The notes: a model not told the origin generated them from the sequence alone. Shown: positions 12,832-33,917, numbered from the stretch's first letter. The stretch: DNA of 64,000 nt from an uncultured Spirochaetota bacterium (GCA_963734495.1 CAVTHK010000013.1:1-64000); one strand, 5' to 3'. Numbers and translations are program-made.

Positions 12832-13440
12832 ATGGTTACCTTCTGTGTGCCGCGGGCCGAACGGGGATGCGCGGCGTTTCGGTTTGCGGTCTCCGGCTGC
12901 ACGGCGCTGCTGGCCGGCAGCCGCGGCTACGAGGTCGGCGAGCAGACCTGCCGTGACATCCTGGGCGGCCTTGCCCGCCTGGGCCTCGGGTTCTACGTCG
13001 GCTGTGACAGCGGGGTGGAGGAGAGCTTTCGCCGCGCGCTCTCTCACTCGCCCTGGCGCAAGGATGCCTGGATCGCCTGCGCGTCTCGTCGTCGAGCCTG
13101 GGCTGCTCGCAGCCTCGGGCTCGATGCGTACGTCGTGGTGCCGCGCGGGCTCTCGCGCGAGGTCGCCCGCTACCGGCGCACGCTCTGGATGGTGCGCCGC
13201 TGCGCGCTGGCGATCCTGTTCCCCGACTGCCGGCAGGACGGGACGTGGGGCTCCGGCTCACGCCTGGTGATCCGCTCGGCGCTTGCCAACCTGAAACCGC
13301 TGTTCATCGTCGGCGAGCGGCGGCCTGTCGTTCCGGCCGCCTACCACGTGCTGCCCGCGGACCTGTTCGCCGCGGTGCGCGGCTTCTGGGTCGTGGCCGA
13401 TCCCTACGGGGACGGAGGCACCTGCGATGACGACCATTAG
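12832..13440 (+). CDS. SLOG-superfamily (DprA/Smf/YspA-like Rossmannoid) protein
   Basis: LLAGSR, FYVGCDSGVE, RRTLWMVRR and GSGSRL..SALANLKPLF motifs; GGAGG RBS before the ATG at 12832. Confidence 0.55.
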   Translation: MVTFCVPRAERGCAAFRFAVSGCTALLAGSRGYEVGEQTCRDILGGLARLGLGFYVGCDSGVEESFRRALSHSPWRKDAWIACASRRRAWAARSLGLDAYVVVPRGLSREVARYRRTLWMVRRCALAILFPDCRQDGTWGSGSRLVIRSALANLKPLFIVGERRPVVPAAYHVLPADLFAAVRGFWVVADPYGDGGTCDDDH

Positions 13441-13721
13441 AAAGACGAGCCGCGATCTGGCGGTCACCATCCAGGCGCTCGCCGGTCGCGACGGGGAGTA
13501 CCTGGCCTATTTCCGCTCCGAGCCCCTGGAGGCCACCTACAGCGTCTACTTCCACGACAACCTGATGGGCGCCCTCGCGTTGCACAACTTCGCCGAGATG
13601 CTGCGGCAAGAGCTACGGGGTGGACGCCGTGCGCCTGGAGCTCTGCGACGGGGCGATGGTGTTCCGCAGCCCCGCGATTCTGGACGTGCTCACGGCGAGC
13701 GGCTCCCATCGGAGAGCGTAA
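13427..13721 (+). CDS. Small hypothetical protein (~97 aa, one frameshift), conserved in the second copy
   Basis: MTTIRKTSRDLAVTIQALAGRDGEYLAYFRSEPLEAT...; a homologous ORF starts at 32809. Confidence 0.65.
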
Positions 13722-13759
13722 GCTCTCCCAGAGGAGAACGGACAGGACGGCGCTCCGGA

Positions 13760-13798
13760 GGCTCAGGAGCCCGGACGTCCTGTCCGGGCTCCTGAGCC
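13760..13798. other. Perfect 17-bp stem hairpin
   Basis: GGCTCAGGAGCCCGGAC-gtcct-GTCCGGGCTCCTGAGCC. Confidence 0.85.
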
Positions 13799-14027
13799 GA
13801 TCAGAGAGCGAGCGTGGGACACACGACGTGGCCCACGCGTCCGCCTGGGGCGGAGTGCGCCCGACTGCGGCTCGCGCCTACCGGCGAAGGGCAAGCCGCT
13901 TGCGGAAGGCCCGCGCCGAAGGCAGACGCTGCGCTCGGTGAAGGCTCCCGCGGCACGCGCGCCGCCTGCTGGCCGCGTACACCGCGAAGGCGACCGCCAC
14001 GACTACGAAGGCGAGACGCCGGCGCCG

Positions 14028-14055
14028 TTGACCTGGTCGCCTTCGGTGATATTCT
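14028..14055 (+). promoter_or_regulatory. Conserved promoter TTGACC-N16-TATTCT (extended -10 TGn) facing the variable gene slot
   Basis: The equivalent TTGATC-N16-TATCCT with TGn occurs at 33267-33294. Confidence 0.6.
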
Positions 14056-14078
14056 GATCGTGGCGAGCGCCACGATCA

Positions 14079-14468
14079 ATGGAGCAGCGTCAGACAAACG
14101 AGCAAACACAGCGCATGGACGAAGGTGACTTCCTGCGAAGGTGTCTGCCAAGGACTCACGGGTACTACAAGTCGAGACCGCTCCCGGAATATCGCAGCCC
14201 TGACTGCCCCGACCGTTTCGATGCATTTGTGCGAGATCGAGTACCGTTCTTCCGCTTTCTCATCGACCAGTTCTACCAGCACAAGCGAACCGCCATGCTC
14301 CAGCTCGCCCACCTTGCGGAGCCCAAGATTCTCAATCACTTGGACGAATTGCTCTTTCAGTTCCTTGCCACCGACGACCAGACCACCTACCAGCAAGCAA
14401 AGGACATCTACATGTTCATGCTCGAGTCGTGTGTCGTCCGTTCTGCGGTCCCAAAAGAGCCGTCCTGA
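14079..14468 (+). CDS. Hypothetical protein (cargo slot of copy 1; start may be 14115)
   Basis: Intact 129-aa ORF with protein-like composition; no family recognised. Confidence 0.6.
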   Translation: MEQRQTNEQTQRMDEGDFLRRCLPRTHGYYKSRPLPEYRSPDCPDRFDAFVRDRVPFFRFLIDQFYQHKRTAMLQLAHLAEPKILNHLDELLFQFLATDDQTTYQQAKDIYMFMLESCVVRSAVPKEPS

Positions 14469-14519
14469 TGCGGCGCCGCGGTGAGTTCACTGCCGAACAC
14501 GATCGCCCGCGACTCTGTC

Positions 14520-14622
14520 GTTTCTCGCCGAAGCCGCTCATTGGCGGTTTCCGGCCGACTGAAGAACCCGCGCATTGGCGCGATTCGGGGTAGGTCATAC
14601 CGAGCCAGTAGGGGGAATCGGG
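14520..14622 (+). repeat. att-like site R1
   Basis: About 100 bp similar to 15916-16014. Core ACCGAGCCAGTAGGGGGAATCGGG matches 33860-33883 at 23 of 24 positions. Confidence 0.75.
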
Positions 14623-14757
14623 GGGCAAGGCGTTCGGGCACGCTGGGCTGACAGCAGCTTTGCGAAACGCGCTGCGGAACGATCGCGTAACGTTGACAGG
14701 CTACGCTGGTACTGCTCGTTCGGTGATTCGATGATAGAACCGAGGAGGAGGTACAAG

Positions 14758-15880
14758 ATGGTCCGACCGGTGCATCTTCCGAACAAGACGGCCTGCAAAT
14801 GGCAGAGTACTGTGCGCTGTTGCGCTTTGACAGTCCTGGCTATCTTCATCGTCTTGGCGAGCTCATGCGCTGGCATGGTGAAGCCAGCATCTGCGCAACG
14901 GGACTTCACGCTCGTTGTCTTTCCGGATCTCCAGTACATGGTTGCCAATGACGTTCTCTTGCGCGGCCGGGGAGTGACTATGTGGAGGTCGATGTTCGAA
15001 TGGGTTGTCAAGAACCGCAAGGCTGAGAACATCCGGGCGGTCCTGTCCGTAGGCGACGTTACAGATCATGCGACAAGCGTCGAGTTCAAGGTAGCGTCTG
15101 AAGGCTTTGGGCAAATAGAGGCAGCAGGGATCCCCTGCGTACCGATCGTTGGCAACCACGACTATGATACTACTGGTGGTGGCCAGGTCCGCCGCCTCGG
15201 TGACGGCGCCAGAGACAGGAGGGTGACCGGGTTCGACAGTGTCTTCGGTCAGAGCCGGTTTGAAGGGAAGTCCTGGTATGGAGGGAATCTGAATGGCAGC
15301 CACGCCAACTACTACGTCACCCTCAACGTGGACAGGTGGAAGTTCCTCATCGTCGCGCTGGAGTTCTACCCACGTCATGAGGCAGTGGCGTGGGCCTCCC
15401 GTGTTATTGACGCCCATCCAGATGCCGAAACAATTATCCTCACCCACGGCTATCTCAACCCGGACGGCACTCGAGTTCAGCAAGTGGGGCAGTGGTGGTC
15501 CCATCAGGTACGGGCTGGAAGACGACTGCAGTGGCGAAGATCTGTGGGACCAACTCATCAGGCGGAAGTCGAATATCCTGGCGGTAGTCTGCGGCCATAT
15601 GAGCAACGAACCACATACGGCCCATCACACTGCCACGGGAGACAGCGGGAATACTGTCGAGGAGATATTTATCGACTATCAGAGCGCTCTCTTGGGGGAC
15701 GGATGGGTAGGCCTGCTGAGGTTCCGCCCGTCCCTCGGAACCATGGAGATGAGTTCCTATCGAACCTACGCTCCCTCCGGCCTTGGGTATGATCCGAACG
15801 CTCCGACGTACTCACTGCCATGGCCCGATGCCAGCCGCACTTCAATGGCAAGGAAGGAAGCTCCGGTGCCTCAACGATAG
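14758..15880 (+). CDS. Secreted/lipoprotein calcineurin-like metallophosphoesterase (one frameshift near 15490)
   Basis: Motifs VFPDLQY, VGDVTD, VGNHDYD, ILTHGY and VCGH; signal-like N-terminus; AGGAGG RBS. Confidence 0.85.
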
Positions 15881-15915: not shown

Positions 15916-16060
15916 GTTTCTCGCCGAAACTGCTCATTGGCCGTTTCCGGCCGACTCGGGAAACCGCGCATTGGCGCGAAGCGGTGTGGTCCTACCGTGC
16001 CCAGTGGGGGAGCGAGCCGGCGCGCATCCGCTCTCTTGTCGACCGTGCCTGCGCACCTGC
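15916..16060 (+). repeat. att-like site R2
   Basis: The left arm matches R1, the core is degenerate (ACCGTGCCCAGTGGGGGAG), and the right flank resembles that of R3. Confidence 0.7.
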
Positions 16061-16266: not shown

Positions 16267-16289
16267 TTTCTTCAAAACAGGGTCTGTCC

Positions 16290-17504
16290 CTATCTTCCGA
16301 AGTCGTCGCGCTCGAGGAGCCACGAGACGGCGCAGCCGAACACCAGGCCCCAGAACGCTGCGCCGATGTTGAAGATCGGCACGTCGGCCACGGTGACGAG
16401 GAAAGTGACGAGCGCGCCGAGCGAGAAGCGGCCCTTGAACGAGATCACGAATGCGGTCTGCAGCACGCGCAGCATGGCAAGCCCCGCAAGCGCGCCGATG
16501 AAGGCCTGCGGGGTTGCGAGCAGGAGGTGGGTAAACACGGGCGAGAACAGGCCGAAGCCGAGCGCGAGCACGCCCACCAGCACGCCGGAGCTGTACTGGC
16601 GCTGCTTCTCGCCCGAGGCCGCGAGGATCGCATTCACCGGGCCGGTGAGGCAGGTCGAGACGCTGCCGACGAGCGCTGCAGGGATCGACCACAGGCCGCA
16701 GGCCGCGGTGATCGCGTTGATCGGCGGCGCATGGCCGGCAGCGCGCAGCACCGCGACGCCCTGGCCGTTTTGCACCACCAGCACGGTCACCGCGAGCGGT
16801 ACGACGAGCTCGAGCGTCGCGCGCCAGGAGAACTGCGGGGCGTAGAAGTTCGGGTGTACGAGGCCGAGGCCACCCATCGTCAGGCCGTGGAAGCGCCCGA
16901 GCGCCGCGGCCATGACGGCGCCGACGATCATCGCGCCGATCACGGGCGGCAGCGCCTTCGCCAGGCGCGGCGCGAGCGACAGCGCGAGGAACGCCGCGGC
17001 CATCGGCGCCGCGATCCAGAAGTCGTCGCGGATCGCGTACACGAGATTCAGGCCGAAGCGCAGGAACACGCCGGCCACCATCCCCATGACGATCGGCATC
17101 GGCACCGCTTCCATCGCGCGCTTCACCCAGCCCGAGAGCCCGAGCACGAGCATCAGCACGCCGCAGCCGAGGTAGGCGCCGATCACTTGCGGGAACGTGA
17201 GGTGCCCGAGCGCGCCGCCGACCAGGACCGCGCCGGGAATGGTCCAGAAGAAGACGAGCGGCTGACGGTAGTACCAGCAGAAAAAGATGCTGAGCAGCCC
17301 GTTCAGGAAGAACGAGCCGAAGATCCAGGACGCGAGGTCCGCTTCCGTCAGGCCGCCGTGCGTGCCGACCGCCAGGATGATCGCCACCGGCCCCGAGGCC
17401 GCGAAGATGAAGCCGACCAGCGCATTGCCGGCATAGTGGCCGCCGAGGTCGCCGAGCAGCCGCGCGAACCCCGGCGGCCGCGCCGCGGGACTCTCGAGTG
17501 ACAT
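16290..17504 (-). CDS. benE: Benzoate/H+ symporter BenE family transporter
   Basis: Polytopic membrane protein with ASWIFG, YRQPLVFFWTIPGAVL, VQNGQGVAVL and GALVTFLVTVA..IFNIGAAFWGL. Confidence 0.85.
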   Translation of the reverse strand: MSLESPAARPPGFARLLGDLGGHYAGNALVGFIFAASGPVAIILAVGTHGGLTEADLASWIFGSFFLNGLLSIFFCWYYRQPLVFFWTIPGAVLVGGALGHLTFPQVIGAYLGCGVLMLVLGLSGWVKRAMEAVPMPIVMGMVAGVFLRFGLNLVYAIRDDFWIAAPMAAAFLALSLAPRLAKALPPVIGAMIVGAVMAAALGRFHGLTMGGLGLVHPNFYAPQFSWRATLELVVPLAVTVLVVQNGQGVAVLRAAGHAPPINAITAACGLWSIPAALVGSVSTCLTGPVNAILAASGEKQRQYSSGVLVGVLALGFGLFSPVFTHLLLATPQAFIGALAGLAMLRVLQTAFVISFKGRFSLGALVTFLVTVADVPIFNIGAAFWGLVFGCAVSWLLERDDFGR

Positions 17505-17688
17505 CGGCTATGCGCCGTAGCCCGCGAGGAAGCCCGCGTCGACCTTGTCGGGGCTCGTGCGCTGCAGGTACGCCTGCAGGAAACCTGATGGCATTCCGTT
17601 GCTCCTGGCTCTGTGGGTGCGGGGGACGGACCAATTTAGTGGCGCGCGGTGACCAGGGTCAATGGAGGGCGGGCCGGTCGGCGCGTCG

Positions 17689-18120
17689 TCACCTCATCGG
17701 GGCGTCGGCGGCCAGGCCGAGCTGCCGCAGGATCGACTTGGCGACCTTGCAGACGACGGTGCAGGCGGGATCGAACATGTTCCCGATCTCGTACTCCACG
17801 CACTGCCCCAGGAGCAGGTGCCCTTCGGAGCCCTCCAGGCTCAGCTCGTTCAGCCAGCGGATCATCTCGGTGGTGGCGCGCTGCGTGGGTTGGTCCAGGG
17901 GCCGGGTGTTTCCGACGGCAAAGATATGGGTGGCATTCTCGCCCCGTGGCCACAGGATCTTACGGCCCTTGGGGACGCGCAGCGTCACCTCCACCTCAAA
18001 AGAGATTTCGATGCCGGCCCCGACGATTTCGCCGTCGCCCTGCACGGCGCGGCCGTCGCCGATGTGGAAGAGGGGCCCCCTTCACGAAGACCGGGAAGTA
18101 GGCGGTGACCTCCTGGCGCA
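17689..18120 (-). pseudogene. Acetamidase/formamidase family C-terminal fragment
   Basis: YFPVFV.GA.FHIGDGRAVQGDGEIVGAGIEI and PLDQ..QRATTEM; the 5' part is absent. Confidence 0.7.
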
Positions 18121-18276
18121 AGCCCTGGGGCCCCGATGCCTCGTAGCGCTCTAGGGCCACGTCAAATCAAAGTACTGACGGAAAGGCAGCAATTTGGAGA
18201 ACCAGAAATCTCCCTGTTCCTCTCAGTGGTTCAAATCGAATTCAAAGAAGTCCACTATCATTCGAGTGTTGAAGTA

Positions 18277-19356
18277 CTACGCTTTTTCCAGCGTGTACCG
18301 GGCCTTGCGCCAGTCAAGGCGCTCCTGCCAGTCGGGGTATCTGTAGCGGCCGATATCCTGGTCGTCGGGATAGACGAACATGGCCCCGGCCTGAAGAATG
18401 ACGGTCTTCATGGTCTTGGAGTTCTCTCGGACTATCGTCTCCAGTTCGTCGGGGCGCATAAAGGTGCAGCACCAGTTGTCGTAGTGATCCGGTATGATCA
18501 CCTTCGTGTTCAGGGCCTTCCCGATCCGATACGCGTCGTAGGGGGTCAGCTTGTCGTTGGAACCCGAAGGGTTGTGCCCCATGTCCAGGATCGTGACGTC
18601 CACCTTGTTGCGCTGGCCCACGCCGAAAAATGAGTTGTCGTAGGTCGCGTCGCCCAGAAAGGCGATGCTGCCGGCTTTGGTATTGAAGATGTAGGAGACC
18701 GCGGCGTCGCCCATGGAGAATTGCGCGGCTGAGCCTTCTGGCATTCCTACCGTAGTCTTGAGGGCGTTCATGTCGTAGTTGTCCTCGACTATGATTTCCG
18801 CGTTCTTCATCTTCAGCTTGTCGCCGGGCTTTACCTCGACGATACGGCTGTCCGGCACGCCCCAACGCTTGAGGACGGCGGTTGTCATTTTCGGCCCGAT
18901 AAACTTCGCGGTTGTGGTCTTGAGCAGCGCCTTGACGGTATAGATGTCGCAGTGATCCGCATGGTGATGGGTAATAAAGAGGGCGTCCACCCTTTTCAAT
19001 TTCCAGATGTCGATGACCTGCGGGTTGATGCGTATCCAGTGCAGCCTGTCGGCGCCGGTGCTCTTGCAGTCCCCGGAGTTTTCATAGCGCGTAACCATTG
19101 AGGGGCCAGCGTAATTGTCGATCAGGAAAATCTCATCCTGGACTTTCATGCCCCAGGAAGGACCACCGAGCCACCACAGCGCCGCTTTCGAGGCGGGAAC
19201 TTCCGCGTGTTCCAACTGAAAATTGATGTACTGGCCCCAGGGCGGGAAACAGTCGTTGATCCAGGTCTCATAGGTGATGTCCCTGTCCGAAAGCATGTAC
19301 GAGGACTCCATGATGCCCCATTCGTCACGCTGTTTCTTGTCTTTGTCAGCCATCAT
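18277..19356 (-). CDS. Metallo-beta-lactamase-fold lactonase, UlaG (L-ascorbate-6-phosphate lactonase)-like
   Basis: ITYETWINDCFPPWG, ALWWLG, THHHADHCD, DKLTPYD and IPDHYDNW. Confidence 0.8.
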   Translation of the reverse strand: MMADKDKKQRDEWGIMESSYMLSDRDITYETWINDCFPPWGQYINFQLEHAEVPASKAALWWLGGPSWGMKVQDEIFLIDNYAGPSMVTRYENSGDCKSTGADRLHWIRINPQVIDIWKLKRVDALFITHHHADHCDIYTVKALLKTTTAKFIGPKMTTAVLKRWGVPDSRIVEVKPGDKLKMKNAEIIVEDNYDMNALKTTVGMPEGSAAQFSMGDAAVSYIFNTKAGSIAFLGDATYDNSFFGVGQRNKVDVTILDMGHNPSGSNDKLTPYDAYRIGKALNTKVIIPDHYDNWCCTFMRPDELETIVRENSKTMKTVILQAGAMFVYPDDQDIGRYRYPDWQERLDWRKARYTLEKA

Positions 19357-19451
19357 TCACTCCTGTTCCCGGGATGTTGTATCGAATCATGAAACATGTA
19401 CTATGAGCTGTCCGTGGGCGGCGTGAAAGAGACCGCCTCGATCTCTGCCCC

Positions 19452-20519
19452 TTACGGCTCTATCACCACTTTGATGGCGCCGTCTTTCCGGTCGACAAAG
19501 GTGTCCAGGGCTTCTTCATACTGCCCCAGCGGAAAGGTGTGGGAAACGACCTTGTCGCCCTTGACGATGCCCGCGGAAATCATGCGGAGCGCCCGGTCGG
19601 AAACGTTGGGATTCGCCCGCGAACCGGTGACCGTCAGCTCGTTCATGACAAGCTGAGTGAGCGCCGGGAGTTTCGCGCTTGCGTCGTTGTAGAACCCGAC
19701 CATGTTTATCTTCCCTCCTTTGCGCACCGAGCGGACGCACTGGTCCAAGGCGGCGTTGCCGCCGGAACATTCCTGTATCTCGTCGACGCCCCTGCCGCCG
19801 GTGATTTCGAGGATCCGCTCCACCGGATCTTCCTTCTCGTAGTTGACCGCGTAGTCCGCGCCCAACTCCCCAGCCACATCCAGCCGGTGTCTCCGTCCCA
19901 CCATGATCACCGTGGCAGCGCCCATGCCCTTGATCATCTGCAGCGAGCACAGGCCGATAGGTCCCGGCCCCCAGACGGCGGCGGTGCCCCCGGCAGTGAC
20001 GCCGATCATGTCGATGCCGTGCAGAGCGACCCCGGCGGTGTCCAGAAGCGACGCGTGCACGAAGCTCAGATTGTCCGGTATCTTGTGCAGCGACTTCGGG
20101 GCGTATACGTTGTACTCGCAGTTCGCGCCGGCGACGGTAAAGCCGTAATGCCGGTGTCCGGCGGTCCCTTTGCCGTAGTTGAGGCAGAGCGTATAGCGGC
20201 CTTCGAGGCAGTTGACACAGGCGCCGCAGCCGCAGTGGGCCTCTCCTGCCACCCGGTCGCCGGGCTTGAACCCCGCGACGCCCTCCCCGGTTTCGACGAC
20301 TTCGCCCGCCCATTCATGACCCAGCACAAAGGGGAAGGATGGCGGCCAGTTCTTTTTGGCGTGATGGCCGTTGATGATTTCCGGATCGGTTCCGCAAATC
20401 GCCACCGCCCTTATCCTGCAGAGCACCTCGCCGGGTCCTGGCCGCGGCACGGGCAGCTCGGCGATTTCCAGCTTGTTATATGCCGTCAAGAGGCAGGCCT
20501 TCATGGTCCTGGGAATCAT
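19452..20519 (-). CDS. Zn-dependent medium-chain alcohol/polyol dehydrogenase
   Basis: CGTD, GHEWAG, CGACVNC...C and GPGPIG. Confidence 0.9.
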   Translation of the reverse strand: MIPRTMKACLLTAYNKLEIAELPVPRPGPGEVLCRIRAVAICGTDPEIINGHHAKKNWPPSFPFVLGHEWAGEVVETGEGVAGFKPGDRVAGEAHCGCGACVNCLEGRYTLCLNYGKGTAGHRHYGFTVAGANCEYNVYAPKSLHKIPDNLSFVHASLLDTAGVALHGIDMIGVTAGGTAAVWGPGPIGLCSLQMIKGMGAATVIMVGRRHRLDVAGELGADYAVNYEKEDPVERILEITGGRGVDEIQECSGGNAALDQCVRSVRKGGKINMVGFYNDASAKLPALTQLVMNELTVTGSRANPNVSDRALRMISAGIVKGDKVVSHTFPLGQYEEALDTFVDRKDGAIKVVIEP

Positions 20520-20533
20520 CGTTTCCTCCGGCG

Positions 20534-21322: not shown

Positions 21323-21334
21323 GTCCCTTCCTTT

Positions 21335-23096: not shown

Positions 23097-23143
23097 TGCC
23101 CCTGAGCCTTCTGGTTTCGACGTGACATCGTACGGCGCGGAAA

Positions 23144-23172
23144 GCGGAGCGGACACCACGGGTCCGCTCCGC
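23144..23172. promoter_or_regulatory. Intergenic hairpin after the SBP gene (mRNA stabiliser/attenuator)
   Basis: GCGGAGCGGAC / GTCCGCTCCGC, an 11-bp stem. Confidence 0.55.
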
Positions 23173-23195
23173 CTCCGACGTGAAGCGCTGGTTCC

Positions 23196-24506: not shown

Positions 24507-24532
24507 CTTCGACCTCCCCAAATGGTGACCAC

Positions 24533-24610
24533 ATCGTAGCATGGAAGCGCCGATTGTCAACGAATATTTTCGAAAATATATTTACTTGACAGCGAGAAAA
24601 CATATACGAT
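24533..24610. promoter_or_regulatory. Divergent promoters with a perfect 16-bp palindromic operator ATATTTTCGAAAATAT (24564-24579)
   Basis: The palindrome lies between TTGACA boxes on both strands, beside the GntR gene. Confidence 0.65.
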
Positions 24611-24627
24611 GTTTACAGGAAACGACG

Positions 24628-25287: not shown

Positions 25288-25410
25288 GAGGAAAAGTGAT
25301 CTCGGACCGTTGGCAAACGCGGGACGCCAAGCAGCTTTCCGGACCTGAGTCTTGACACCGCCCTCCGTCCCCAAAGGAGGCGCAGCGCCAACGCCTCGAT
25401 CGAGTTTCTT

Positions 25411-25473
25411 CTTGACTCCACCCAGGATTGTGGTAAAGTGTGACAACTTATGGGTTGTGCCTTGTCCTACAAG
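25411..25473 (+). promoter_or_regulatory. Promoter TTGACT-N16-TAAAGT with a FadR-type operator CTTGTCCTACAAG
   Basis: Hexamers and a TTGT-N3-ACAA palindrome (25461-25473) upstream of the FadR-like gene. Confidence 0.5.
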
Positions 25474-25526
25474 TGCCTCCATTCTGAATCACTTCGACTC
25501 GGCGTAATGCGTCACTTCGACTGTCC

Positions 25527-26297
25527 ATGGGGCAAGACGGGGCAGAGGGCGAGCGCGTGATTGAGCCGATCACCAGAACCAACGTAGTCGACCAGGTATT
25601 CGACACAATCATGCGCATGATCGCCTCCAGGGAATGGACTGTCGGCTACAAGATCCCGTCCGAGAACGAGATGAAGGCCCGACTCAAGGTCAGCCGCAAC
25701 TCCATCCGCCAAGCCATTCACCGGGTTGCGGCACTCGGATTGCTGGAGTCGAAGCAGGGCGAGGGCACCTATGTGCGGAAGATCGATCTCTCGTTCTACT
25801 TGAACATTCTGGTCCCTGTCGCGGTTCTGGGCACTGATGACGCACTGATGCTCTTCCATCTGCAGCGAGCGATTCAGGTCGAAAGCGCTCAACAGGTATG
25901 CGATTTCTGCACTGACGAGCAGGCTGAGAAACTCCTGGCCCACGTGGAGCAGATGAAGCGCGGCTATTCTGCCGGCGACAAGATCGGATACTTGACGGCA
26001 GACCTGGACTACCATGCCCTGTTTGTGGCTATCTCAGGCAACCAGCTTTTCGTGAAGCTCACGGAGATAATTCGCCAGATGCTCTACTACACGTTGCGCG
26101 ATGTCGTATTTCACTTCGATTGCACACGAAGCATCACGTTTCACCAAGACATAGCGATGGCGGTAAAGCACCGAGACAGATCGACCGTACTCAACCAGAT
26201 GAAAGGCCATATGGACCACGTGATCATGATGATTAGCGAGCTCTCCACGCGCGACCGAGGGTGTTGTCGCGAAATGAGCGAGGGTCACAGGGCATGA
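25527..26297 (+). CDS. FadR/GntR family transcriptional regulator (start may be 25557)
   Basis: KIPSENEM...VSRNSIRQAI...GLLESKQGEGTYV; DLDYH..ISGN. Confidence 0.9.
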   Translation: MGQDGAEGERVIEPITRTNVVDQVFDTIMRMIASREWTVGYKIPSENEMKARLKVSRNSIRQAIHRVAALGLLESKQGEGTYVRKIDLSFYLNILVPVAVLGTDDALMLFHLQRAIQVESAQQVCDFCTDEQAEKLLAHVEQMKRGYSAGDKIGYLTADLDYHALFVAISGNQLFVKLTEIIRQMLYYTLRDVVFHFDCTRSITFHQDIAMAVKHRDRSTVLNQMKGHMDHVIMMISELSTRDRGCCREMSEGHRA

Positions 26298-26392
26298 CAG
26301 ACCGGAGAGAGAAGGAGGGCGCCGCATGTAGTCCAGATTCAGATTCTTCCTGGCGGAATGGCTGTCGAGAAATGACAAAGGAGGCAATCGAA

Positions 26393-27754
26393 ATGCAATC
26401 TAAGAGGATCTTTGCTTTGGTGGTGGCTATGGTGATGCTGGCTTCGCTCTGCGCCTGGTCCAGCCCCAGCAACGAGGGGACAGCCGGAAGCGCCGGCGCA
26501 GCCGCATTTGGCATGAAAGACCCGAAGTCGTATCAGGGCACTATCTCGATGTGGTCGCACACGAAGGATCAGCCGAACTTCATGATCAAGCGCTACAACG
26601 AAGTGTACCCGAACGTGACCATCAAGTTCGACGTGATCCCTGGGGATGCGCACCAGCAAAAGGTCCAGACCGCTGTTGCGGCCGGCGTGGACGTACCTGA
26701 CATCTTCACGGTAAAGACCGACTTCATCAGGGTAATCGCCAATTCTGATCGATATTACGACAACCTGCTGGGCAAGCCATACAACGCGACGCACCTGGCC
26801 AAGGATCTCGCGAAATACACGGTCGAAGTCGGATCCGACAAGAGCGGCGCTCTGCGCGCCGTGACCTGGCAGTGCCCCGTAGGCGCGATCTATTACCGCC
26901 GCAGCCTGGCGAAACAGTATTTCGGCACCGACGATCCTGAGAAGATCTCGAAGTTGTTCACGAATCTCAACTCCATAGTGGATGTGGCACGGCAACTCAA
27001 CGAAAAGTCCGGCGGCAAGGTCAAGCTGATCGGAAGCTACGACCAGCTGCGCGGTCTCTACAATTCCAGTCTGAAGCGGCCATTCGTCGTCGGCAACGAG
27101 ATCAACCTTGACCCGATGCTCATCGAATACTTCAAGGCTGCAAAGACGCTCTATGATGAAAACCTTGACTGGAAGACGGCGCAGGGGAATGCCAACTTCG
27201 CGGGGTTGATGCAGAACGGAAAGATCTTCTGCGTGATGTCGGCGACGTGGGCGCTCAATTTCCTCCTCATGCCGGTCTATCCGAGCACGAAGGGTGACTG
27301 GGGTCTGGCGTCGCCGCCGGTTCCGTTCACCGTGGGTGGCACGTGGATGGGCATCTACCCCAAGTCGAGCCAAAAGGAGATCGCCTACACATTCCTCAAC
27401 TACGTCTTTTCGAACGAGGATTTCCTCTTCAGGTATGCGACGGAGCTCGGCGACTACGTGTCCAACGTCAAGGTGCAGCAGAGGATCGGCAAGATGACCC
27501 CGAACGAGACGGCCCGTCTGCCGCTCTTCGAGTTCGTCGGCAACCAGAACGTGTATTCGTTCTTCAACAACGAGCTCGCCAACGGAGTCCGGTCGGAGCT
27601 CTTTACGCAGTACGACTTTACGATCACCAACACGGGCCTCCTGAACGCGGCCATCGACATGTACATCACGGGACAGAAGACGCTGGACAAGGCCCTGGGC
27701 CAGTACTGCGACGACCTGATCGCCGTGTATCCGAATCTTGTCAGGCCGAAATAG
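26393..27754 (+). CDS. Carbohydrate ABC transporter substrate-binding protein
   Basis: Signal peptide, ISMWS, PDIF, YYRRSLAKQYFGTDDP and GGTWMGI. Confidence 0.9.
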   Translation: MQSKRIFALVVAMVMLASLCAWSSPSNEGTAGSAGAAAFGMKDPKSYQGTISMWSHTKDQPNFMIKRYNEVYPNVTIKFDVIPGDAHQQKVQTAVAAGVDVPDIFTVKTDFIRVIANSDRYYDNLLGKPYNATHLAKDLAKYTVEVGSDKSGALRAVTWQCPVGAIYYRRSLAKQYFGTDDPEKISKLFTNLNSIVDVARQLNEKSGGKVKLIGSYDQLRGLYNSSLKRPFVVGNEINLDPMLIEYFKAAKTLYDENLDWKTAQGNANFAGLMQNGKIFCVMSATWALNFLLMPVYPSTKGDWGLASPPVPFTVGGTWMGIYPKSSQKEIAYTFLNYVFSNEDFLFRYATELGDYVSNVKVQQRIGKMTPNETARLPLFEFVGNQNVYSFFNNELANGVRSELFTQYDFTITNTGLLNAAIDMYITGQKTLDKALGQYCDDLIAVYPNLVRPK

Positions 27755-27778
27755 GTGCCGCTCCGAACATAGACTATG

Positions 27779-27806
27779 CGCTCCCGGCGTCGCTGCGCCG
27801 GGAGCG
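27779..27806. promoter_or_regulatory. Intergenic hairpin after the SBP gene
   Basis: CGCTCCCGGCG / CGCCGGGAGCG. Confidence 0.55.
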
Positions 27807-27828
27807 TCCATCAAGACGGGAGAAATCC

Positions 27829-28611
27829 TTGATCATCACAGGCAGAACCTCTCGGCTGAATCACAAGTGGTCCTTTGACGGATGCGTCCGTTTTTTCAAG
27901 GGGGTCGGGTTCGACGGCATAGAATTCTGCTTTGAGGACTACTACTTCAAAGTCCGTCCCGACTACGCAGAGGACTTCTTTGTGAAACACGCGGTGGAGC
28001 TCTGCCGGGAACTGGGGATGGTGATCGGAGCTGTCGGCAACCATCTGGAATATGTCTATGACGACGACATGTTCGCCTTGATGAAGAAGACGATTCCGAT
28101 CGTCCGCGATTATGGCACCGACATTCTCATCACGGCCACTCCTGATCACAATCACCGGAAGTACCACCACCGGAGCGAGTACTACGCGGAATACCTGAAG
28201 CGACTGACCGAGTTGCTGGACATCGCCGCGGACCATGGAGTGATGATCGCGATTGAGCCGGAGGTGATGAACCTCGTCACAACCACCCAGGACTTCCTCG
28301 AGCTCTGCGAGCGGGTGGGTCGCAAGAACCTTGTGTGCAATCTCGACGTCGGACATGCCTTTCTGACGGACCCCGACATCTTCGAAAGCATCCGCCGACT
28401 TGGTGACAAGGTCGTCCACGCCCACGTGGAAGGCATGAACCGCGGCGAACACGCGCACCTCCTGCCGGGACACGGGGATATGGATCTTCCTGCCGTCATC
28501 AAAGCCATGCGGGAGCAGGGCTTTGACGGCGCCCTGGCACTGGACGTCTATATCTACGACTACGACAAGGTTGCCAAGGATTCGATCAACACCCTGCGCG
28601 GGATGCTCTGA
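27829..28611 (+). CDS. Sugar phosphate isomerase/epimerase, paralog of 20534-21322
   Basis: TTG start after GGGAG; GFDGIEFCFEDYYFKVRPDY, IEPE and LDVGHAFLTDPDIFESIR. Confidence 0.85.
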   Translation: MIITGRTSRLNHKWSFDGCVRFFKGVGFDGIEFCFEDYYFKVRPDYAEDFFVKHAVELCRELGMVIGAVGNHLEYVYDDDMFALMKKTIPIVRDYGTDILITATPDHNHRKYHHRSEYYAEYLKRLTELLDIAADHGVMIAIEPEVMNLVTTTQDFLELCERVGRKNLVCNLDVGHAFLTDPDIFESIRRLGDKVVHAHVEGMNRGEHAHLLPGHGDMDLPAVIKAMREQGFDGALALDVYIYDYDKVAKDSINTLRGML

Positions 28612-28612
28612 C

Positions 28613-29578
28613 ATGGACCCCATTACGTTGCCGGCAGCGGGAGCGCGCCCGGGAGACAGAAGGGCGAAGCGGAGCAGAGCAAGCTGGGAAAGGTCCGGTC
28701 TCTACTTCGTCATTCCTTTTGCCCTGGTTCTGCTCAGCCTGAAGATCTTGCCCATGCTCTACGCGATCGGACTCAGCTTTGTCGCCTGGGACGGGCTGGG
28801 AGACAAGGTGTTCGTCGGTCTCGGCAATTATGTCCGTCTGATCCGAGACGTGAACTTCTACAAGGCGGTATTCAACACCTGGTTCATCTGGGCTCTGAAC
28901 ATAGGATTCCGAATGGCGGTGGCTCTGGTGTGCGCGTATATCTTTGCGCAGTCCCATCTCCGCGGAAAACAGGTCTTCAAGGCCGTGTTCTACTTTCCGA
29001 ACCTGGTCACGGCCTCGTCAATTGCCGTCTTCGCGTACCTCGTGCTCGACTACCAGAGCGGCTTCGTCAACCAGGTATTGCTCGACCTGGGGTTGATCCG
29101 GGAAAGGATCCACTGGCTGCAAAGGCCGTTCGCGGCGCAGGCTTCGGTCGCATTCATCATCTGGTGGATGTGGTTCGGGTACGCGGCGATCTTCTTCACC
29201 ACGGGTATGCTGGGAATCTCCACTGACGTCATTGAGTCCTCGATCGTGGACGGGGCGAACGCGTGGCGTCGCTTCTGGCGGATCATCATGCCGTTGATGC
29301 GCCCCACATTCGCCTACGTGTTCATCACCTCTCTGATCGGCGGCATGCAGAACTTCGAGATCCCGAGGCTGCTGACCGACGGGCGCGGCGCCCCCGACAA
29401 GTCGCTGCTGACAATGGTGATGCAGCTCTACAACCTCACGTTCCAGAACCTCCAGTACGGCTACGGGGCGACCTACGCGGTTGCGCTCTTCATCATCATT
29501 GCAGCCGTGACGGGACTCTCATTCCGGGTCGTTCAGGGCGGCAAGGACGACTTTTCGGGGAGCGGTGACAAAGCATGA
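28613..29578 (+). CDS. Carbohydrate ABC transporter permease
   Basis: FVGLGNY and ESSIVDGA. Confidence 0.9.
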   Translation: MDPITLPAAGARPGDRRAKRSRASWERSGLYFVIPFALVLLSLKILPMLYAIGLSFVAWDGLGDKVFVGLGNYVRLIRDVNFYKAVFNTWFIWALNIGFRMAVALVCAYIFAQSHLRGKQVFKAVFYFPNLVTASSIAVFAYLVLDYQSGFVNQVLLDLGLIRERIHWLQRPFAAQASVAFIIWWMWFGYAAIFFTTGMLGISTDVIESSIVDGANAWRRFWRIIMPLMRPTFAYVFITSLIGGMQNFEIPRLLTDGRGAPDKSLLTMVMQLYNLTFQNLQYGYGATYAVALFIIIAAVTGLSFRVVQGGKDDFSGSGDKA

Positions 29579-30405
29579 CTCGCAGAGGCGTCCTGCTTCG
29601 GCGCGGTGTCGTCTATGCCCCGCTGATACTGCTCTCCGCGGTCTGCGTGATCCCATTCTACGTGATGATGATCAACGCCACGCGGACGAACGCGGAGATC
29701 TCGGTGGCGGTTTCCCTGGTCCCTGGAAGCAACCTTCTCAGGAACTACGCGAAGCTGAATGACACCATCAACATGCTCGGAGCCCTGAGGAACAGCGTCA
29801 TCATTGCTTCGCTGTCGACGGCGCTCACCGGCTACTTCGGCGCGATGGCGGCCTACGGCTTTGCCAAGTTCCGGTTCAAGGGGCGTACTCTGCTCTTTGC
29901 GCTGACGCTCAGCACGATGATGATACCGTTCCAGCTCTGCTACATCGGCCTCTATCAAGCGGTGGCCCGTCTCCATCTTATCAACACATTCTGGCCGATC
30001 ATACTGCCGGCGATGGCGAACGCCGCGACGGTGTTCTGGATGCGCAACCACATGACCAGCGTGGTCGACACGGCCTACATGGAGGCCGCGCGCATAGATG
30101 GCTACAGCGAGATGGCCATCTTCCATACCATCGTCTTGCCGCTCGCTCGCAACGGCTTGTTCACCGTTTCCATCTTCAACTTCGTAAGCGCATGGAATGA
30201 CTACATCGCCCCGTTGATCTTCCTGTACGGGAACGAGCGGTTCCCTCTCTCGCTGGCCATCGCGGTCGTGAAGCAGGCGGATTTCCAGGATCAAGGCGCG
30301 ATATACGCCGGGGTCGCCATGTCGGTCTTGCCGATTCTCATCGTCTATGGGTTTCTGAGTTCAAAGATCATCAGCGGGATCACCGTGGGTGGAATCAAAG
30401 GCTGA
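29575..30405 (+). CDS. Carbohydrate ABC transporter permease
   Basis: EAARIDG, WNDY and GGIKG. Confidence 0.9.
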   Translation: MTRRGVLLRRGVVYAPLILLSAVCVIPFYVMMINATRTNAEISVAVSLVPGSNLLRNYAKLNDTINMLGALRNSVIIASLSTALTGYFGAMAAYGFAKFRFKGRTLLFALTLSTMMIPFQLCYIGLYQAVARLHLINTFWPIILPAMANAATVFWMRNHMTSVVDTAYMEAARIDGYSEMAIFHTIVLPLARNGLFTVSIFNFVSAWNDYIAPLIFLYGNERFPLSLAIAVVKQADFQDQGAIYAGVAMSVLPILIVYGFLSSKIISGITVGGIKG

Positions 30406-30412
30406 GAGAAGG

Positions 30413-31516
30413 ATGGGCAGAGCAATGAGCTTCGACATACCAACGCAGATGCGGGCAATGGTGCTCACGGCCCCGGGCAAGTTCGAGGTCCGAAACGTGC
30501 CGGTTCCTGCGCCGGGGCAAGGGGAAGTCCTGTGCCGTATCGGCGGAGTGGCCATTTGCGGCAGCGACCCGGAGATCTTCCGGGGCGACATTGCCGGGAT
30601 CTGGCCCCCGCACTATCCGTTCGTGGCCGGGCACGAGTGGGCCGGGCGTGTCGTCGCTCTCGGAACGAATGTGACAAAGTTCAAGGTGGGCGACCGGGTC
30701 GCGGGAGAAGCCCACAAAGGCTGCGGTCACTGCCGCAACTGCCTCGCGGGCCACTACAGCACCTGTCTCAACTACGGCAACTACGAGAGTGGTCAGAGAC
30801 ACTACGGGTTCAAGAACAACGGAGCATACTGTCAGTATCAGTCATACAATGTGAACTCCCTGACACTCATGCCCGACAGCGTTTCGTACAAAGAAGGCGC
30901 CATGGCCGACACCGCCGGAGTCGCGTTGCATGGCATCGAGCTGGCCGCGCCTGTCGCCGGGTCCACCGTGGCGGTCATCGGTCCCGGGCCTATTGGGATG
31001 ATGGCGATGAAGATCTCAAAGGCGTTGGGTTGCGCCCGTGTCATTGTCGTGGGCCGCGGGTCGCGTCTGCAATCAGCCATCAACCTCGGATGTGACGACG
31101 CGGTGGACTTCACCAGGTGCGATCCAGTCGAACGAGTTCGTGAGCTCACCGACGGCCTCGGCGTCGATGTCTGCTACGAGAGTTCCGGTGCGAAGGGAAC
31201 ACTGTCGCAAGGGATCCGGATGTGCCGCCGTGGCGGAAAGGTAGTCATGCTTGGCGTTGCACCCGATGGTGTTGTGGAGGAGATACCGGCCAGGTTCACC
31301 ACAGCCAACGAAATAGCGATTCTTGGTTCCAAGGCCAATCCAAATACGTGCTGGAAGGTCATGCAGCTGATAGGCCGCGGCAGACTCCATGTCAAAGACA
31401 TGGTGACCCACACGTTCGATCTCGAGCACGTGGGCGATGCCGTTGACACCTTCGTCAACCGAAAAGACAATGTGATGAAAGTTGTCATATATCCAAACGG
31501 AGGTGAGGAAGCCTGA
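30413..31516 (+). CDS. Zn-dependent alcohol/polyol dehydrogenase, paralog of 19452-20519
   Basis: CGSD, GHEWAG, CGHCRNC and GPGPIG. Confidence 0.9.
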   Translation: MGRAMSFDIPTQMRAMVLTAPGKFEVRNVPVPAPGQGEVLCRIGGVAICGSDPEIFRGDIAGIWPPHYPFVAGHEWAGRVVALGTNVTKFKVGDRVAGEAHKGCGHCRNCLAGHYSTCLNYGNYESGQRHYGFKNNGAYCQYQSYNVNSLTLMPDSVSYKEGAMADTAGVALHGIELAAPVAGSTVAVIGPGPIGMMAMKISKALGCARVIVVGRGSRLQSAINLGCDDAVDFTRCDPVERVRELTDGLGVDVCYESSGAKGTLSQGIRMCRRGGKVVMLGVAPDGVVEEIPARFTTANEIAILGSKANPNTCWKVMQLIGRGRLHVKDMVTHTFDLEHVGDAVDTFVNRKDNVMKVVIYPNGGEEA

Positions 31517-31905: not shown

Positions 31906-32259
31906 CTACTTGTCGCTCGCGTCGCGGGCGCTGAGCTCCGCCTCGAGGGCCTGCTGCACAAGCTGGTTGAGCGAGATGCCCCGAAGGGTTGACTGCCGAG
32001 CCGCCTTGCGGTGCAATTCCGGCGGAACCCGTACGTTGAATGTTCCACGGTAGGACTTCTCAACGCGTTTGCCAGTCCGCTTGCACAACTGCAGGTAGTC
32101 CTCAACCGCCTCTTTGAATCCGGCCGTCAGATCCCCGACACTCGCACCCTCAAAGGTCACCAGATCGTCAATCCCCTCGATCTTTCCGTGGAACACAGAG
32201 TCGTCGGCGCTAAAGTGGACCGAGCCGACAAAACCCTTGTAGGTCAACACGTCAGCCAT
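31906..32259 (-). CDS. hicB: HicB family antitoxin
   Basis: LTYKGFVGSV...FHGKIEGIDDLVTFEG...FKEAVEDYL...YRGTFNVRVPPELH...ISLNQ. Confidence 0.9.
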   Translation of the reverse strand: MADVLTYKGFVGSVHFSADDSVFHGKIEGIDDLVTFEGASVGDLTAGFKEAVEDYLQLCKRTGKRVEKSYRGTFNVRVPPELHRKAARQSTLRGISLNQLVQQALEAELSARDASDK

Positions 32260-32517
32260 TCAGATAGCTCCTATGCGAACCAGCTCCGCCAACACCTCTT
32301 CGACTTGGTACCGCTTGAGCTGCCTGGCAGGGTGAGGGCGACGCAGACGGATTATGTGTTTGGTGTCCGGGTTGTGAAATGCCACCCTCGAGCTGCCAGT
32401 CCTGGCTGTGGTGAGCTCCACGTACCCAAGCCCACGCAACAGCGTCCGCAGCTCGTCAAAGGTCAAGTCCGTCGGCCGGCTGCGGAAGCGGGCCAGCAAC
32501 TTGTCGTGACGGCTCAC
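32260..32517 (-). CDS. hicA: HicA family toxin
   Basis: KLLARFRSRPTDLTFDEL..LL..LGY...TGSSRVAF...RPHP..QLKRYQV. Confidence 0.85.
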   Translation of the reverse strand: MSRHDKLLARFRSRPTDLTFDELRTLLRGLGYVELTTARTGSSRVAFHNPDTKHIIRLRRPHPARQLKRYQVEEVLAELVRIGAI

Positions 32518-32523
32518 AACAGC

Positions 32524-32569
32524 AGTATACGAAAAGTCAAGATTGATTGCAACTGGGATGTAGTTGCAA
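32524..32569 (-). promoter_or_regulatory. hicAB promoter TTGCAA-N17-TATACT with operator inverted repeat TTGCAACT...AGTTGCAA
   Basis: The -10 box lies 6 nt from the GTG start; the inverted repeat spans 32547-32569. Confidence 0.6.
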
Positions 32570-32661
32570 AATGAACCGCTCTGCCATCGTTCCTAATCTC
32601 TCTTCTGCGAAGTCAGGCAGCGTCTTCTGGTCGCGCGCGGCGACCATAGTGTTCCCCGCCT

Positions 32662-33300
32662 CGCTTGCCAACCTGAAACCGCTGTTCGTGGTCACCGAGC
32701 GGCGGCCCCTGGTGGCGGCCGCCTACCACGTCCTTCCCGCTGACCTGTTCGCCGCAGTGCGCGGCTATTGGGTCGTGGCCGATCCCTACGGCGACGGAGG
32801 CACCTGCGATGACGACCATTAGAAAGACAAGCCGCGATCTGGCGGTCACCATCCAGCCGCTCTCCGGTCGCGATGGGGAGTACCTGGCGTACTTCCGCTC
32901 CGAGCCTCTGGAGGCCACGCTCAGCGTCTACTTTCACGACAGCCTCATGGGAGCCATCGCGTTGCACGAGTTTCGCCGAAATGCTGAGAAAGGCCTACGG
33001 GGTCAACGGTGTCCGCCTGGAGCTCTGTGACCAGACGGTGGTGTTCCGCAGCCGTGCGGTGCTGGACGTTCTCACTTCGAGGCCTTCCGGCCGGAACGTC
33101 TATAGCAGAGGGGAGCAGAGAGGAGGCCCCCCTCCGGAAGCGGTGTGGGCCGATTGCGGCTCGCGCCTACCGGTAAGGGCATACTACTTGCGGAAGGCGC
33201 GCGCCGAGGGCAGCCGCTGCGCTCGTTGAAGGCTCCCCGCGGCCTTCGATGCCATCGGTGCCGCCGTTGATCTGGGTGCCTTTCGTGCTATCCTGGATGC
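32662..33300 (+). repeat. Copy 2 of the direct repeat (SLOG 3' remnant, small ORF from 32809, non-coding block, promoter)
   Basis: ANLKPLF...YHVLPADLFAAVRG.WVVADPYGDGGTCDDDH and MTTIRKTSRDLAVTIQ, as in copy 1. Confidence 0.9.
33267..33294 (+). promoter_or_regulatory. Conserved promoter TTGATC-N16-TATCCT facing the cargo slot
   Basis: Positional and sequence homolog of 14028-14055. Confidence 0.6.
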
Positions 33301-33343
33301 GGCCAAGCGCCCGACGGCGCGGCTGACCGTTGCAGAGGTATCC

Positions 33344-33781
33344 ATGCGAGAATCACTGCTTGTCTTCGTGGATGGTACTATCTGCGACACGCGGCAGCGG
33401 CACTCGGTCGCTGGCACGCCAGCGTTCTACGGCCCGTCAATCATCATGGCAGACCTTCCGACTCCCGGCAGCGTCGAGTGCCTGACCGATCTGTCGCTCT
33501 CCTACGAGATAGTCTACATGGCCGCAAGGCCGGCCTGCGCACGCGAGGCCACAGAGCGGTGGCTGTCCCGATGCGGATTCCCTCCAGGGCCGCTCTACTT
33601 GGCTGCCACTCAGGACGAACGCCTGACCATCGTACGCACCCTGAAGTCCCGGCGATCCTTTCGGGCCGGCATAGGCGATCGCTGGGACGACAACGAGCTG
33701 CACTTGGAGATCGGCTGCATGAGCATCATAGTCAAGGAATTCGAGCCCAATTGGGCCACGGTTATCCGGCACGTCTCTTGA
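33344..33781 (+). CDS. HAD-superfamily acid phosphatase-like protein (cargo slot of copy 2)
   Basis: VFVDGTICDT (degenerate motif I), IVYMAARP, TERWL..CGFP and GIGDRWDD. Confidence 0.75.
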   Translation: MRESLLVFVDGTICDTRQRHSVAGTPAFYGPSIIMADLPTPGSVECLTDLSLSYEIVYMAARPACAREATERWLSRCGFPPGPLYLAATQDERLTIVRTLKSRRSFRAGIGDRWDDNELHLEIGCMSIIVKEFEPNWATVIRHVS

Positions 33782-33830
33782 ACGGTCCGAGTTGCCACGA
33801 GCCGCAAGCGCGGCCGCGTGTTGCGGAAGG

Positions 33831-33917
33831 GCGCATCGGCATTGCGGAGAGCTTCAACCACCGTGCCAGTAGGGGGAATCGGGATGTGCGCCTCCGCTCT
33901 CATGCCTGCACGCCTGC
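33831..33917 (+). repeat. att-like site R3
   Basis: GCGCATCGGC-N19-ACCGTGCCAGTAGGGGGAATCGGG; the right flank resembles R2. Confidence 0.7.

Follow-up and report, generated by a model that had tools for sequence, protein, structure and literature searches.

Integrons are built from the integrase IntI, encoded beside the attI site, a resident promoter, Pc, that transcribes the cassettes, and an array of cassettes with one gene and a terminal attC site each, attC being an imperfect inverted repeat that folds in its single-stranded form, and a recombinase in trio (RIT) consists of three tandem tyrosine-recombinase genes. For integrative and conjugative elements (ICEs) as well as integrative and mobilizable elements (IMEs), tandem accretion, decayed modules flanked by att sites, and integration into a resident site have been described, according to the part of the source considered here (PMC5704250). 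The locus compared with these systems is located in the genome of an uncultured Spirochaetota bacterium (GCA_963734495.1, designated G000; 5.38 Mb in 18 contigs, approximately 68% G+C). The first 64 kb of its contig C13 (CAVTHK010000013.1) was analyzed, and this whole stretch of 64,000 nt is called “the window”; all coordinates are counted from its start, which is also the start of the contig. Contigs of this genome are indicated by C, genomes or metagenome-assembled genomes (MAGs) by G, and the loci or contigs compared by L. The original prediction, made from the window alone, had described a repeated module of promoter, variable gene, and att-like site as an integron-like gene-capture platform. 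The data presented here indicate that the repeated block is probably, with appreciable room for doubt, the cargo-bearing right arm of an undescribed integrative plasmid-like element, copies of which would have accreted in tandem at its site; its likeness to an integron is a loose one. Neither the element family nor its gene set was found described in the literature searched, supplementary files aside.

The core of the element contains two genes for Xer-like tyrosine recombinases and one for a replication protein on one strand; the divergent side contains genes for a helix-turn-helix (HTH) regulator, a DprA-like protein with a SLOG fold (“SLOG” in the following), and a small protein, followed by variable cargo. 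The recombinase gene rec (6142-7080, minus strand; Pfam Phage_integrase, 6.3e-21) has a frame break near 6430-6440, appeared in tblastn as two pieces in different frames, and reached 119 bits with the NCBIfam XerD model, which is below the cut-off. The second tyrosine recombinase gene, rec' (7126-7958, minus strand), is positioned upstream of rec in the same direction and was recognized by tblastn with rec' of L047 (37% identity over 191 aa) and also with that of L046. Intact homologues of these two genes at 6142-7958 are present in L028, L046, and L047. The best recombinase matches were XerD/XerC-like, and an intact relative of 311 aa contains only Phage_integrase and SAM-like domains. Integron-integrase models gave 47.7 bits (NCBIfam TIGR02249, cut-off 265) and 33.1 bits (PRK15417, cut-off 435), far below the cut-offs, so that the recombinases are not IntI; the original prediction had noted no obvious IntI-specific insertion in them.

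The replication protein, with a Toprim primase-like N-terminal part and a P-loop part, is encoded at 8197-10421 (minus strand). It is split here into open reading frames (ORFs) of 525 and 216 aa, which are 64 to 67% identical to single ORFs of L027 and L046; the relatives possess one protein of 725 to 761 aa. Its neighbors in a language-model comparison (Atlas) carry the domains Toprim_2 and MTBMA_p00010_2nd, the latter a P-loop domain, with a score of 0.99. The HTH regulator of the Cro/C1 type (10330-10953, plus strand; Pfam HTH_3, 3.5e-14) is transcribed divergently from the replication gene, and its position is kept in L027, L046, and L049. An inner cargo region between the HTH and SLOG genes harbors three small ORFs of no recognized family (11063-12301, minus strand), which had no match in Pfam, NCBIfam, or PADLOC; two other genes take their place in L046.

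SLOG (12832-13440, plus strand) comprises 202 aa when started from the methionine codon at 12832. It had no match in Pfam and none to solved structures at the sequence level (best E 0.38, PDB profile). Its AlphaFold model (pLDDT 87.9) matched in Foldseek the DprA structures 3uqz, 3maj, and 4ljk, ShosA, and the SLOG domain of ThsA, with a TM of about 0.5 and a probability of 1.00, and also YpsA. The top 6 matches, and 8 of the first 10, were DprA chains, with ShosA on rank 7 and the ThsA SLOG domain on rank 10. The predicted structure thus has the Rossmann-like DprA/SLOG fold, and the SLOG label given in the original prediction was correct for a protein that sequence methods do not recognize. 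Close relatives are few: 20 proteins at E<=0.001 among 5.8 billion, 0 of 20 with a Pfam domain, and 217 representatives at the same threshold among 1.84 billion, many of them fragmentary.

The arm was also found in MAGs of related spirochaetes and in 54 metagenome contigs ranging from 28 to 69% G+C, and its order in this family is SLOG, small gene, variable cargo, and two-repeat site. Of 56 loci, 44 have the small gene after SLOG; the remaining 12 mostly break off at SLOG or shortly beyond it or contain partial copies. The full gene set in the same order is found in L046, a contig of 33% G+C, and in L027 and L028, which are loci of two related MAGs, and part of it in L047, L049, and L052. SLOG plus site form inverted terminal arms in L028 (83% identity over 1.1 kb) and L046 (99% over 163 nt). 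Two tyrosine-recombinase genes are present in the window, L046, and L047, and one in G045 and G032. The site is linked to the recombinase and replication module in other genomes as well; the absence of such a link would have counted against the original prediction.

In the window, the end of this arm occurs twice, as had been noticed before. Copy A is located at 13281-14075 and copy B at 32662-33311 (plus strand), with lengths of 0.65 to 0.8 kb and about 86% identity. A repeat search aligned 13267-13566 with 32649-32948 (89% over 300 nt), followed by collinear pieces of 79 to 96% identity up to 13949 and 33237; blastn of A against B gave 85.7% over 434 nt (to 32649-33081) and 85.8% over 106 nt (to 33140-33243). 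The A/B repeat is real and far beyond chance. In the pairwise alignment, homology begins abruptly at 13281 and 32662, within the SLOG gene, and fades 20 to 30 nt past the −10-like hexamer, at about 14075 in A and 33311 in B. The claim that homology stops right after the −10 box was therefore close, but its exact end point did not hold.

Copy B contains the last approximately 53 SLOG codons, the small gene with a frame break near 32970, the noncoding block, and a remnant of a further gene; it was found by repeat search, alignment, blastn, and protein-level match. Its onset inside SLOG, beside a HicB/HicA toxin-antitoxin pair (31906-32517, minus strand; HicB Pfam 1.2e-18, HicA_toxin 1.8e-5 and below the cut-off) that abuts the truncation point, marks copy B as the truncated arm of an older element, the cargo of which (between about 16 and 32 kb of the window) was kept. 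In copy A, the small gene (13427-13723, plus strand) carries a +1 frame break near 13605, so that its N- and C-terminal parts are in different frames; they are contiguous in L060 and L061. Copy A additionally has a perfect hairpin of 39 nt 3' of the small gene (13760-13798, a self-inverted match, not in copy B) and about 62 nt at 13961-14022. In the L064 group, the stem of this hairpin is changed with pairing kept. The conserved noncoding block (13800-13955) is, according to alignments, shared with copy B, C3, and L060/L061. A model of this block matched no other group, and it could be aligned within two lineages only; an RNA common to the whole family was dropped as an explanation because the model found no further group.

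The block end recurs on contigs C3 and C11 of the same genome, which adds two more copies; on C11, it is followed by a 111-aa ORF and a site. The third arm remnant, on C3 (L001 5241-9574), is positioned at the edge of a segment with genes for a GmrSD-type restriction system and a DEAD helicase.

The last part of the block explains the promoter-like sequence. Two remnants of a decayed gene, here called “geneY,” are located at 13990-14075 (plus strand), with protein-level matches to the C termini of the C11 ORF and of an intact paralogue on C3. The putative promoter of copy A, TTGACC-N16-TATTCT with a TG (14028-14055; 9 of 12 matches in a promoter scan), is in the last of these remnants. Copy B has TTGATC-N16-TATCCT at 33267-33294, which the same scan did not call. 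When the end of the C11 ORF was used in tblastn, it matched 33239-33310 (83% of 24 aa) and, without DNA similarity, the intact geneY paralogue at C3:421492-421695 (57% of 68 aa); this paralogue of 200 aa is encoded at C3:421492-422106. GeneY is partly present at C11 and in L061. At C11, the gene is frame-broken and ends in the promoter-like sequence; in L061, the nearest relative, the noncoding block is followed by geneY without it. Copies B and C3 share one deletion junction, and copy A retains an extra small geneY fragment. GeneY belongs to no Pfam family, and a caspase-like assignment suggested by a motif was not backed by Pfam. The intact paralogue adjoins a gene with an FGE-sulfatase domain (L119 7584-9467, which is G000:C3:420583-422466).

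The “promoter” is, judged by these protein-level matches, the leftover of about the last 25 codons of geneY. Conservation of TTGACC-N16-TATTCT can be explained by descent from coding sequence, so that no promoter function is needed. The fixed promoter of the original prediction was therefore not upheld: the sequence is the 3' coding end of a gene that has decayed here but remains intact in a paralogue, and the scan did not call it in copy B. At present it may drive the gene downstream, or it may not.

Site R1 (14520-14625, plus strand) contains two direct CATTGGCG-type repeats 34 nt apart and a 24-nt tail (nhmmer E 2.3e-12). R2 (15916-16020, plus strand; nhmmer E 4.1e-12) is 84% identical to R1 over 96 nt by blastn and follows the metallophosphoesterase gene downstream of R1, as had been stated. 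R3 (33830-33885, plus strand) consists of one degenerate repeat and the tail, with 23 of 24 nt as in R1. All three agree with the pattern GCGCATyGGC, a spacer of 19, 18, and 19 nt, respectively, and ACCGwGCC(C)AGTrGGGGGA, which bears out the shared site proposed after the genes of both copies. A 23-nt core occurs twice in the window and in none of 100 shuffles. An alignment shows that R1, R2, the C11 site, G045, L046, L095, and L099 all retain the two direct repeats, with a spacing of about 35 nt, over 33 to 68% G+C.

A profile built from six aligned sites was run on 62 loci (240,652 nt). It found three sites outside the training set at E<0.01 (L105, 2e-9; L065, 1.3e-3; L087, 1.9e-3) and further matches at E 0.013 to 0.13 in L103, L069, and L070, and each of these new sites shares the SLOG strand and is downstream of the small gene. 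Over the genome of the window, only R1, R2, and the C11 site were below E 0.5. A related 17-mer of the G045 type has 17 occurrences in G045 and 10 in G032, compared with 0 for the reversed control. In G045, the homology of five arm copies ends within the site or at most 54 nt past it. In G032, seven exact sites are present in 115 kb, with an eighth at 841581 carrying one mismatch; six of the seven have one orientation, four are directly after SLOG, and they lie among fragments of recombinase and replication genes. This G032 region (G032:C1:726900-841600; L114-L118, L025, and L026) also contains several SLOG copies and looks like a larger pile-up of the same kind. The distances between sites are about 0.4 to 18 kb, and 5.6 to 24 kb in other genomes. 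Folding of seven site sequences as single-stranded DNA (ssDNA) gave z-scores between −1.6 and +1.2, no better than shuffles, and an attC-like hairpin or structured RNA at the sites was ruled out by these scores. The original prediction was thus right that the sites are not attC-like; their conserved feature is the direct repeats.

Two explanations would deny the sites a role in recombination. One of them assumes no site function at all, with segmental duplication of an element end and decay, and with the shared motifs being due to chance or to a host repeat. A tail 12-mer that is unexceptional when compared with shuffles, the occurrence of the tail beside a host hairpin repeat, and the many broken genes in this region would agree with it. 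Nevertheless, the two-repeat site appears in independent lineages, where it is invariably on the same strand and downstream of the same pair of genes, the genome-wide model finds nothing below E 0.5 except R1, R2, and the C11 site, and the reversed-pattern controls yielded zero; this explanation is disfavored and very improbable. In the other, the repeats may be iterons or a binding site for the replication or regulator protein, that is, an origin or control region, and duplication of element ends would have left the sites behind in the window. The repeats are indeed direct, about 35 bp apart, and conserved over 33 to 68% G+C, without dyad symmetry or fold, and the element's own genes include those for a Toprim/P-loop replication protein and an HTH protein. 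On the other side, solo sites flank cargo far from replication genes (R2 and sites in G045 and G032), homology between copies stops at or just past the site, and the site is at the far end of the arm, 3 to 7 kb from the replication gene. We regard iterons as an unlikely, albeit not negligible, explanation.

Between block and site, each copy is followed by a different single gene, as claimed before. The slot gene of copy A is a 129-aa ORF of no recognized family (14079-14468, plus strand) without a match in Pfam, NCBIfam, PHROGs, or PADLOC; a contig from another metagenome covers 14117-14386 of it with 4 differences. The slot gene of copy B is a 145-aa ORF (33344-33781, plus strand), which is weakly HAD/LNS2-like (Pfam LNS2_PITM1-3, 7.2e-5, 23.2 bits at a cut-off of 27.7). 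Because this match is below the threshold, the earlier designation “HAD phosphatase” is weakly founded. PADLOC gave no match for the slot genes, and no second copy of them exists in the genome of the window or at any compared locus. R1 and R2 enclose the gene for a probable lipoprotein metallophosphoesterase (14731-15792, plus strand; Pfam Metallophos, 1.1e-4), which begins with a signal sequence and what we take to be a lipobox. Its assignment is weak (23.2 bits at a cut-off of 21.5), and its C-terminal part looks frame-shifted.

In other loci, the content between small gene and site ranges from none or about 0.3 kb (G045, L087, and L103) over one gene (L046, L095, L069 with a SEC-C motif, and L065 with an OYE reductase) to two genes (L105). 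A gene for a histidyl-tRNA-synthetase-like protein is found between small gene and site at L105 1107-2438. Elsewhere, the small gene is followed by an XhoI restriction-modification pair, AbiJ, an SMC-like ATPase with FRG, or an ECF sigma fusion. Nine elements are 84 to 93% identical over SLOG, small gene, and noncoding block and then diverge, with breakpoints spread over about 70 nt. This shows that a variable gene between block and site is a property of the whole family. The exchangeable gene of the original prediction is consequently confirmed, for the window copies and among close relatives elsewhere, and the objection that the same gene might always occupy the slot does not apply. Every arm examined contains one site, even when the slot is nearly empty, which fits an element end better than a cassette array. 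In G045, solo SLOG-plus-site arms (L027, L029, and L030) are 94 to 96% identical and stand beside oligopeptide ABC operons that are only 70 to 79% identical.

Public sequencing runs contained none with more than 0.10 of the sampled words, and read-level comparison was made with low-depth (2 to 3) contigs of four other metagenomes, which cover parts of the stretch. These contigs include a form without the 62-nt piece of copy A, in-register mosaics of R1 and R2, and one contig that joins 14066 to 14517 and skips the 129-aa gene. Their sequences mark them as relatives in other slot states and not as products of recombination in this strain.

On these data, the integron-like platform can be evaluated, in which a fixed expression slot follows the small gene and the recombinases insert or swap gene-plus-site cassettes. 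Such a platform agrees with the gene content of close relatives, which differs between a narrow left breakpoint and the site, with the two gene-plus-site units in succession after copy A, with the contig from 14066 to 14517 without the 129-aa gene, with the promoter-like match just before the slot of copy A, and with a DprA-like, possibly single-strand-binding, protein encoded beside the slot. It is, however, improbable: even an almost empty slot comes with its one site, the left boundary has no second conserved site and varies over about 70 nt, and the “promoter” is a gene remnant that is absent from L061, which retains geneY. Moreover, the sites have no significant ssDNA fold, the integron-integrase models gave 48 and 33 bits at cut-offs of 265 and 435, none of the slot genes recurred in the genome or the compared loci, and site-to-site units reach 9 to 18 kb. 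The variable gene, the recurring site, and the linked module persist, but the fixed promoter of the original prediction and single promoterless cassettes are not supported. Alternatively, SLOG, the small gene, and the two-repeat site may be a dedicated gene-capture device on a self-replicating element, which would have evolved independently as an analogue of integrons. In that case, the paired recombinases, assisted by the DprA-like protein on ssDNA, would exchange gene-plus-site units at the end of the arm, and the device would span hosts of 28 to 69% G+C. We consider this, too, a low-probability solution.

The integrative plasmid-like element remains the explanation that we prefer. Its end would be the site of about 100 bp with two direct CATTGGCG-type repeats about 35 bp apart, at which the recombinases may act in integrating the element. 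An island would then have been generated by repeated integration into a resident site, followed by decay of the older copies: the left element would end at R1 and be followed by a small module from R1 to R2, and an older element would have lost its core and kept cargo, truncated arm, and R3. The R1-R2 module has a size of 1.4 kb, the R2-R3 module 17.8 kb including the truncated arm, and neither contains a recombinase gene. The G+C content of the window is 55 to 63% up to about 35 kb and about 70% beyond, also past 38 kb, and the repeat block is consequently located in an island that runs off the start of the contig. Tandem accretion of elements and cargo modules is in keeping with three sites in direct orientation and with the low G+C, and the tandem integration suggested by the original prediction is the best reading of such an arrangement. 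The arrangement of the parts, the gene order kept across the family, and the descent of the “promoter” from coding sequence are observations; we infer that recombination takes place at the site and that the island grew by accretion.

Several points weigh against this conclusion. The rec gene, the replication gene, and all three copies of the small gene in the window's genome have frame breaks, those of the small gene at three different places, and either decay or sequencing noise may account for them. Such direct repeats, about 35 bp apart and near a replication gene, could instead serve as iterons of an origin. Within single elements of L028 and L046, the two sites are inverted, an arrangement that does not fit simple excision between them. 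R3 agrees with no more than half of the site and escapes the two-repeat model, and some shuffled 12-mers are at least as rare as the tail 12-mer. The island's left junction is beyond the contig start, so that no attL is known, and no recombination product was seen in the material compared, low-depth contigs of other samples only. Frame breaks are found as well in geneY at C11, at L001 around 9870-9900, and at L002 7824-7826 and 9790-9900; one in-frame stop occurs in the element genes, and the breaks are placed differently in each copy.

The right end of the island may be visible. A hairpin-rich host repeat (33958-34074, 90.7% identity to C8 over 118 nt and by alignment) is located to the right of R3. 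An identical 26-nt stretch with the tail of R3 and R1 is present in two intergenic regions free of the element, C5:71721-71746 and C8:82361-82386, and the same hairpin-rich repeat is to the right of these tail-only sites. Since the R3 tail and its right flank occur together at element-free places, as expected of unoccupied target sites, C5 and C8 are possible targets and R3 a candidate right junction. A scan with Rfam gave no family at gathering scores in the window and, around the tail-only sites, one subthreshold match only, 2 kb off the motif. Comparison with G001, a genome of the same genus, did not define the border of the island; its match is to a paralogue on contig C1.

At the other end of the window, a second and diverged pair of tyrosine-recombinase genes, rec'-like followed by rec-like, is present at 265-1975 on the plus strand with several broken frames. 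It was 24 to 33% identical in tblastn to the recombinases of L046 and L047 and 71% identical at the nucleotide level to the C11 recombinase, and it is probably part of a further element copy extending beyond the start of the contig. Its strand is opposite to that of the main pair. The cargo between R2 and copy B (16290-31516) has a low G+C content and, according to Pfam, encodes a BenE transporter, an MBL-fold protein, two alcohol dehydrogenases (ADHs), a TIM-barrel isomerase, two sugar ABC systems, and two GntR regulators. The two zinc-ADH genes (19452-20519 and 30389-31516) are paralogous, with arms that are 76 to 88% complementary, and the two sugar ABC systems have opposite orientations to each other. 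Outside the island, an ARAGORN call of a 96-nt tRNA-Pro at 45220-45315 is inside a long ORF with high third-position G+C content (44475-45653) and is probably false.

If the proposed element is real, it would represent an undescribed family of self-replicating integrative elements that are marked by a DprA-like gene, by a small gene partnering it, and, at each end, by a site of two repeats. Such a family would carry diverse cargo, including restriction-modification, Abi-type, and GmrSD-type defense genes, transporters, and enzymes, and would pile up into islands in high-G+C spirochaetes. It may provide a compact system to ask how paired Xer-like recombinases choose a nonpalindromic site and whether a DprA-like protein takes part in site-specific recombination. 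For annotators, it would be a marker of islands that are presently not recognized.

In comparison with known systems, the arm protein shares its predicted fold with DprA (3uqz, 3maj, and 4ljk), ShosA (8zva), and the SLOG domain of ThsA (7uxs) but has 202 aa without the extra domains of DprA, no match at the sequence level, and a small partner protein in 44 of 56 loci. Integrons resemble the locus in being linked to a recombinase, in the different genes between a conserved upstream block and a recurring site, and in gene-plus-site units in a row, of which two follow copy A, one copy B, and one the C11 block. They differ in that the recombinase here is not IntI and is encoded 7 kb upstream, behind the replication, HTH, SLOG, and small genes; that the sites are not hairpin-forming attC sites and one is constitutive to every arm; and that the counterpart of Pc is a gene remnant. 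The RIT and strand-biased circularizing (SE) elements, as far as the portions of PMC9345347 and PMC10214605 considered here describe them, likewise possess tandem tyrosine-recombinase genes and inverted terminal repeats. The locus is set apart from them, by these descriptions and not by sequence, by its two recombinase genes in place of three (window, L046, and L047; one in the G045/G032 form), by terminal repeats of about 1.1 kb with a DprA-like gene in each, and by a Toprim/P-loop replication protein. From ICEs, IMEs, and cis-mobilizable elements (CIMEs) of the ICESt1 type, within the part of PMC5704250 on which this comparison draws, the element differs by the absence of conjugation and relaxase genes, by a primase-type replication protein, two recombinases, and DprA-like arm genes, by a site of two direct repeats instead of the end of a tRNA or protein gene, and by a mobility that is predicted here. 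Sites in direct repeat, expected of att sites, are represented by the three on the right side of the island, while the sites are inverted in L028 and L046 and the left junction is off the contig. With these ICE-related elements, as portrayed in the same part of that source, the locus shares the following: an element-encoded site-specific recombinase of the tyrosine type, beside it decayed modules that kept their sites without recombination genes, direct-repeat sites that bound modules of different size, and cargo that would have been captured by integration into a resident site.

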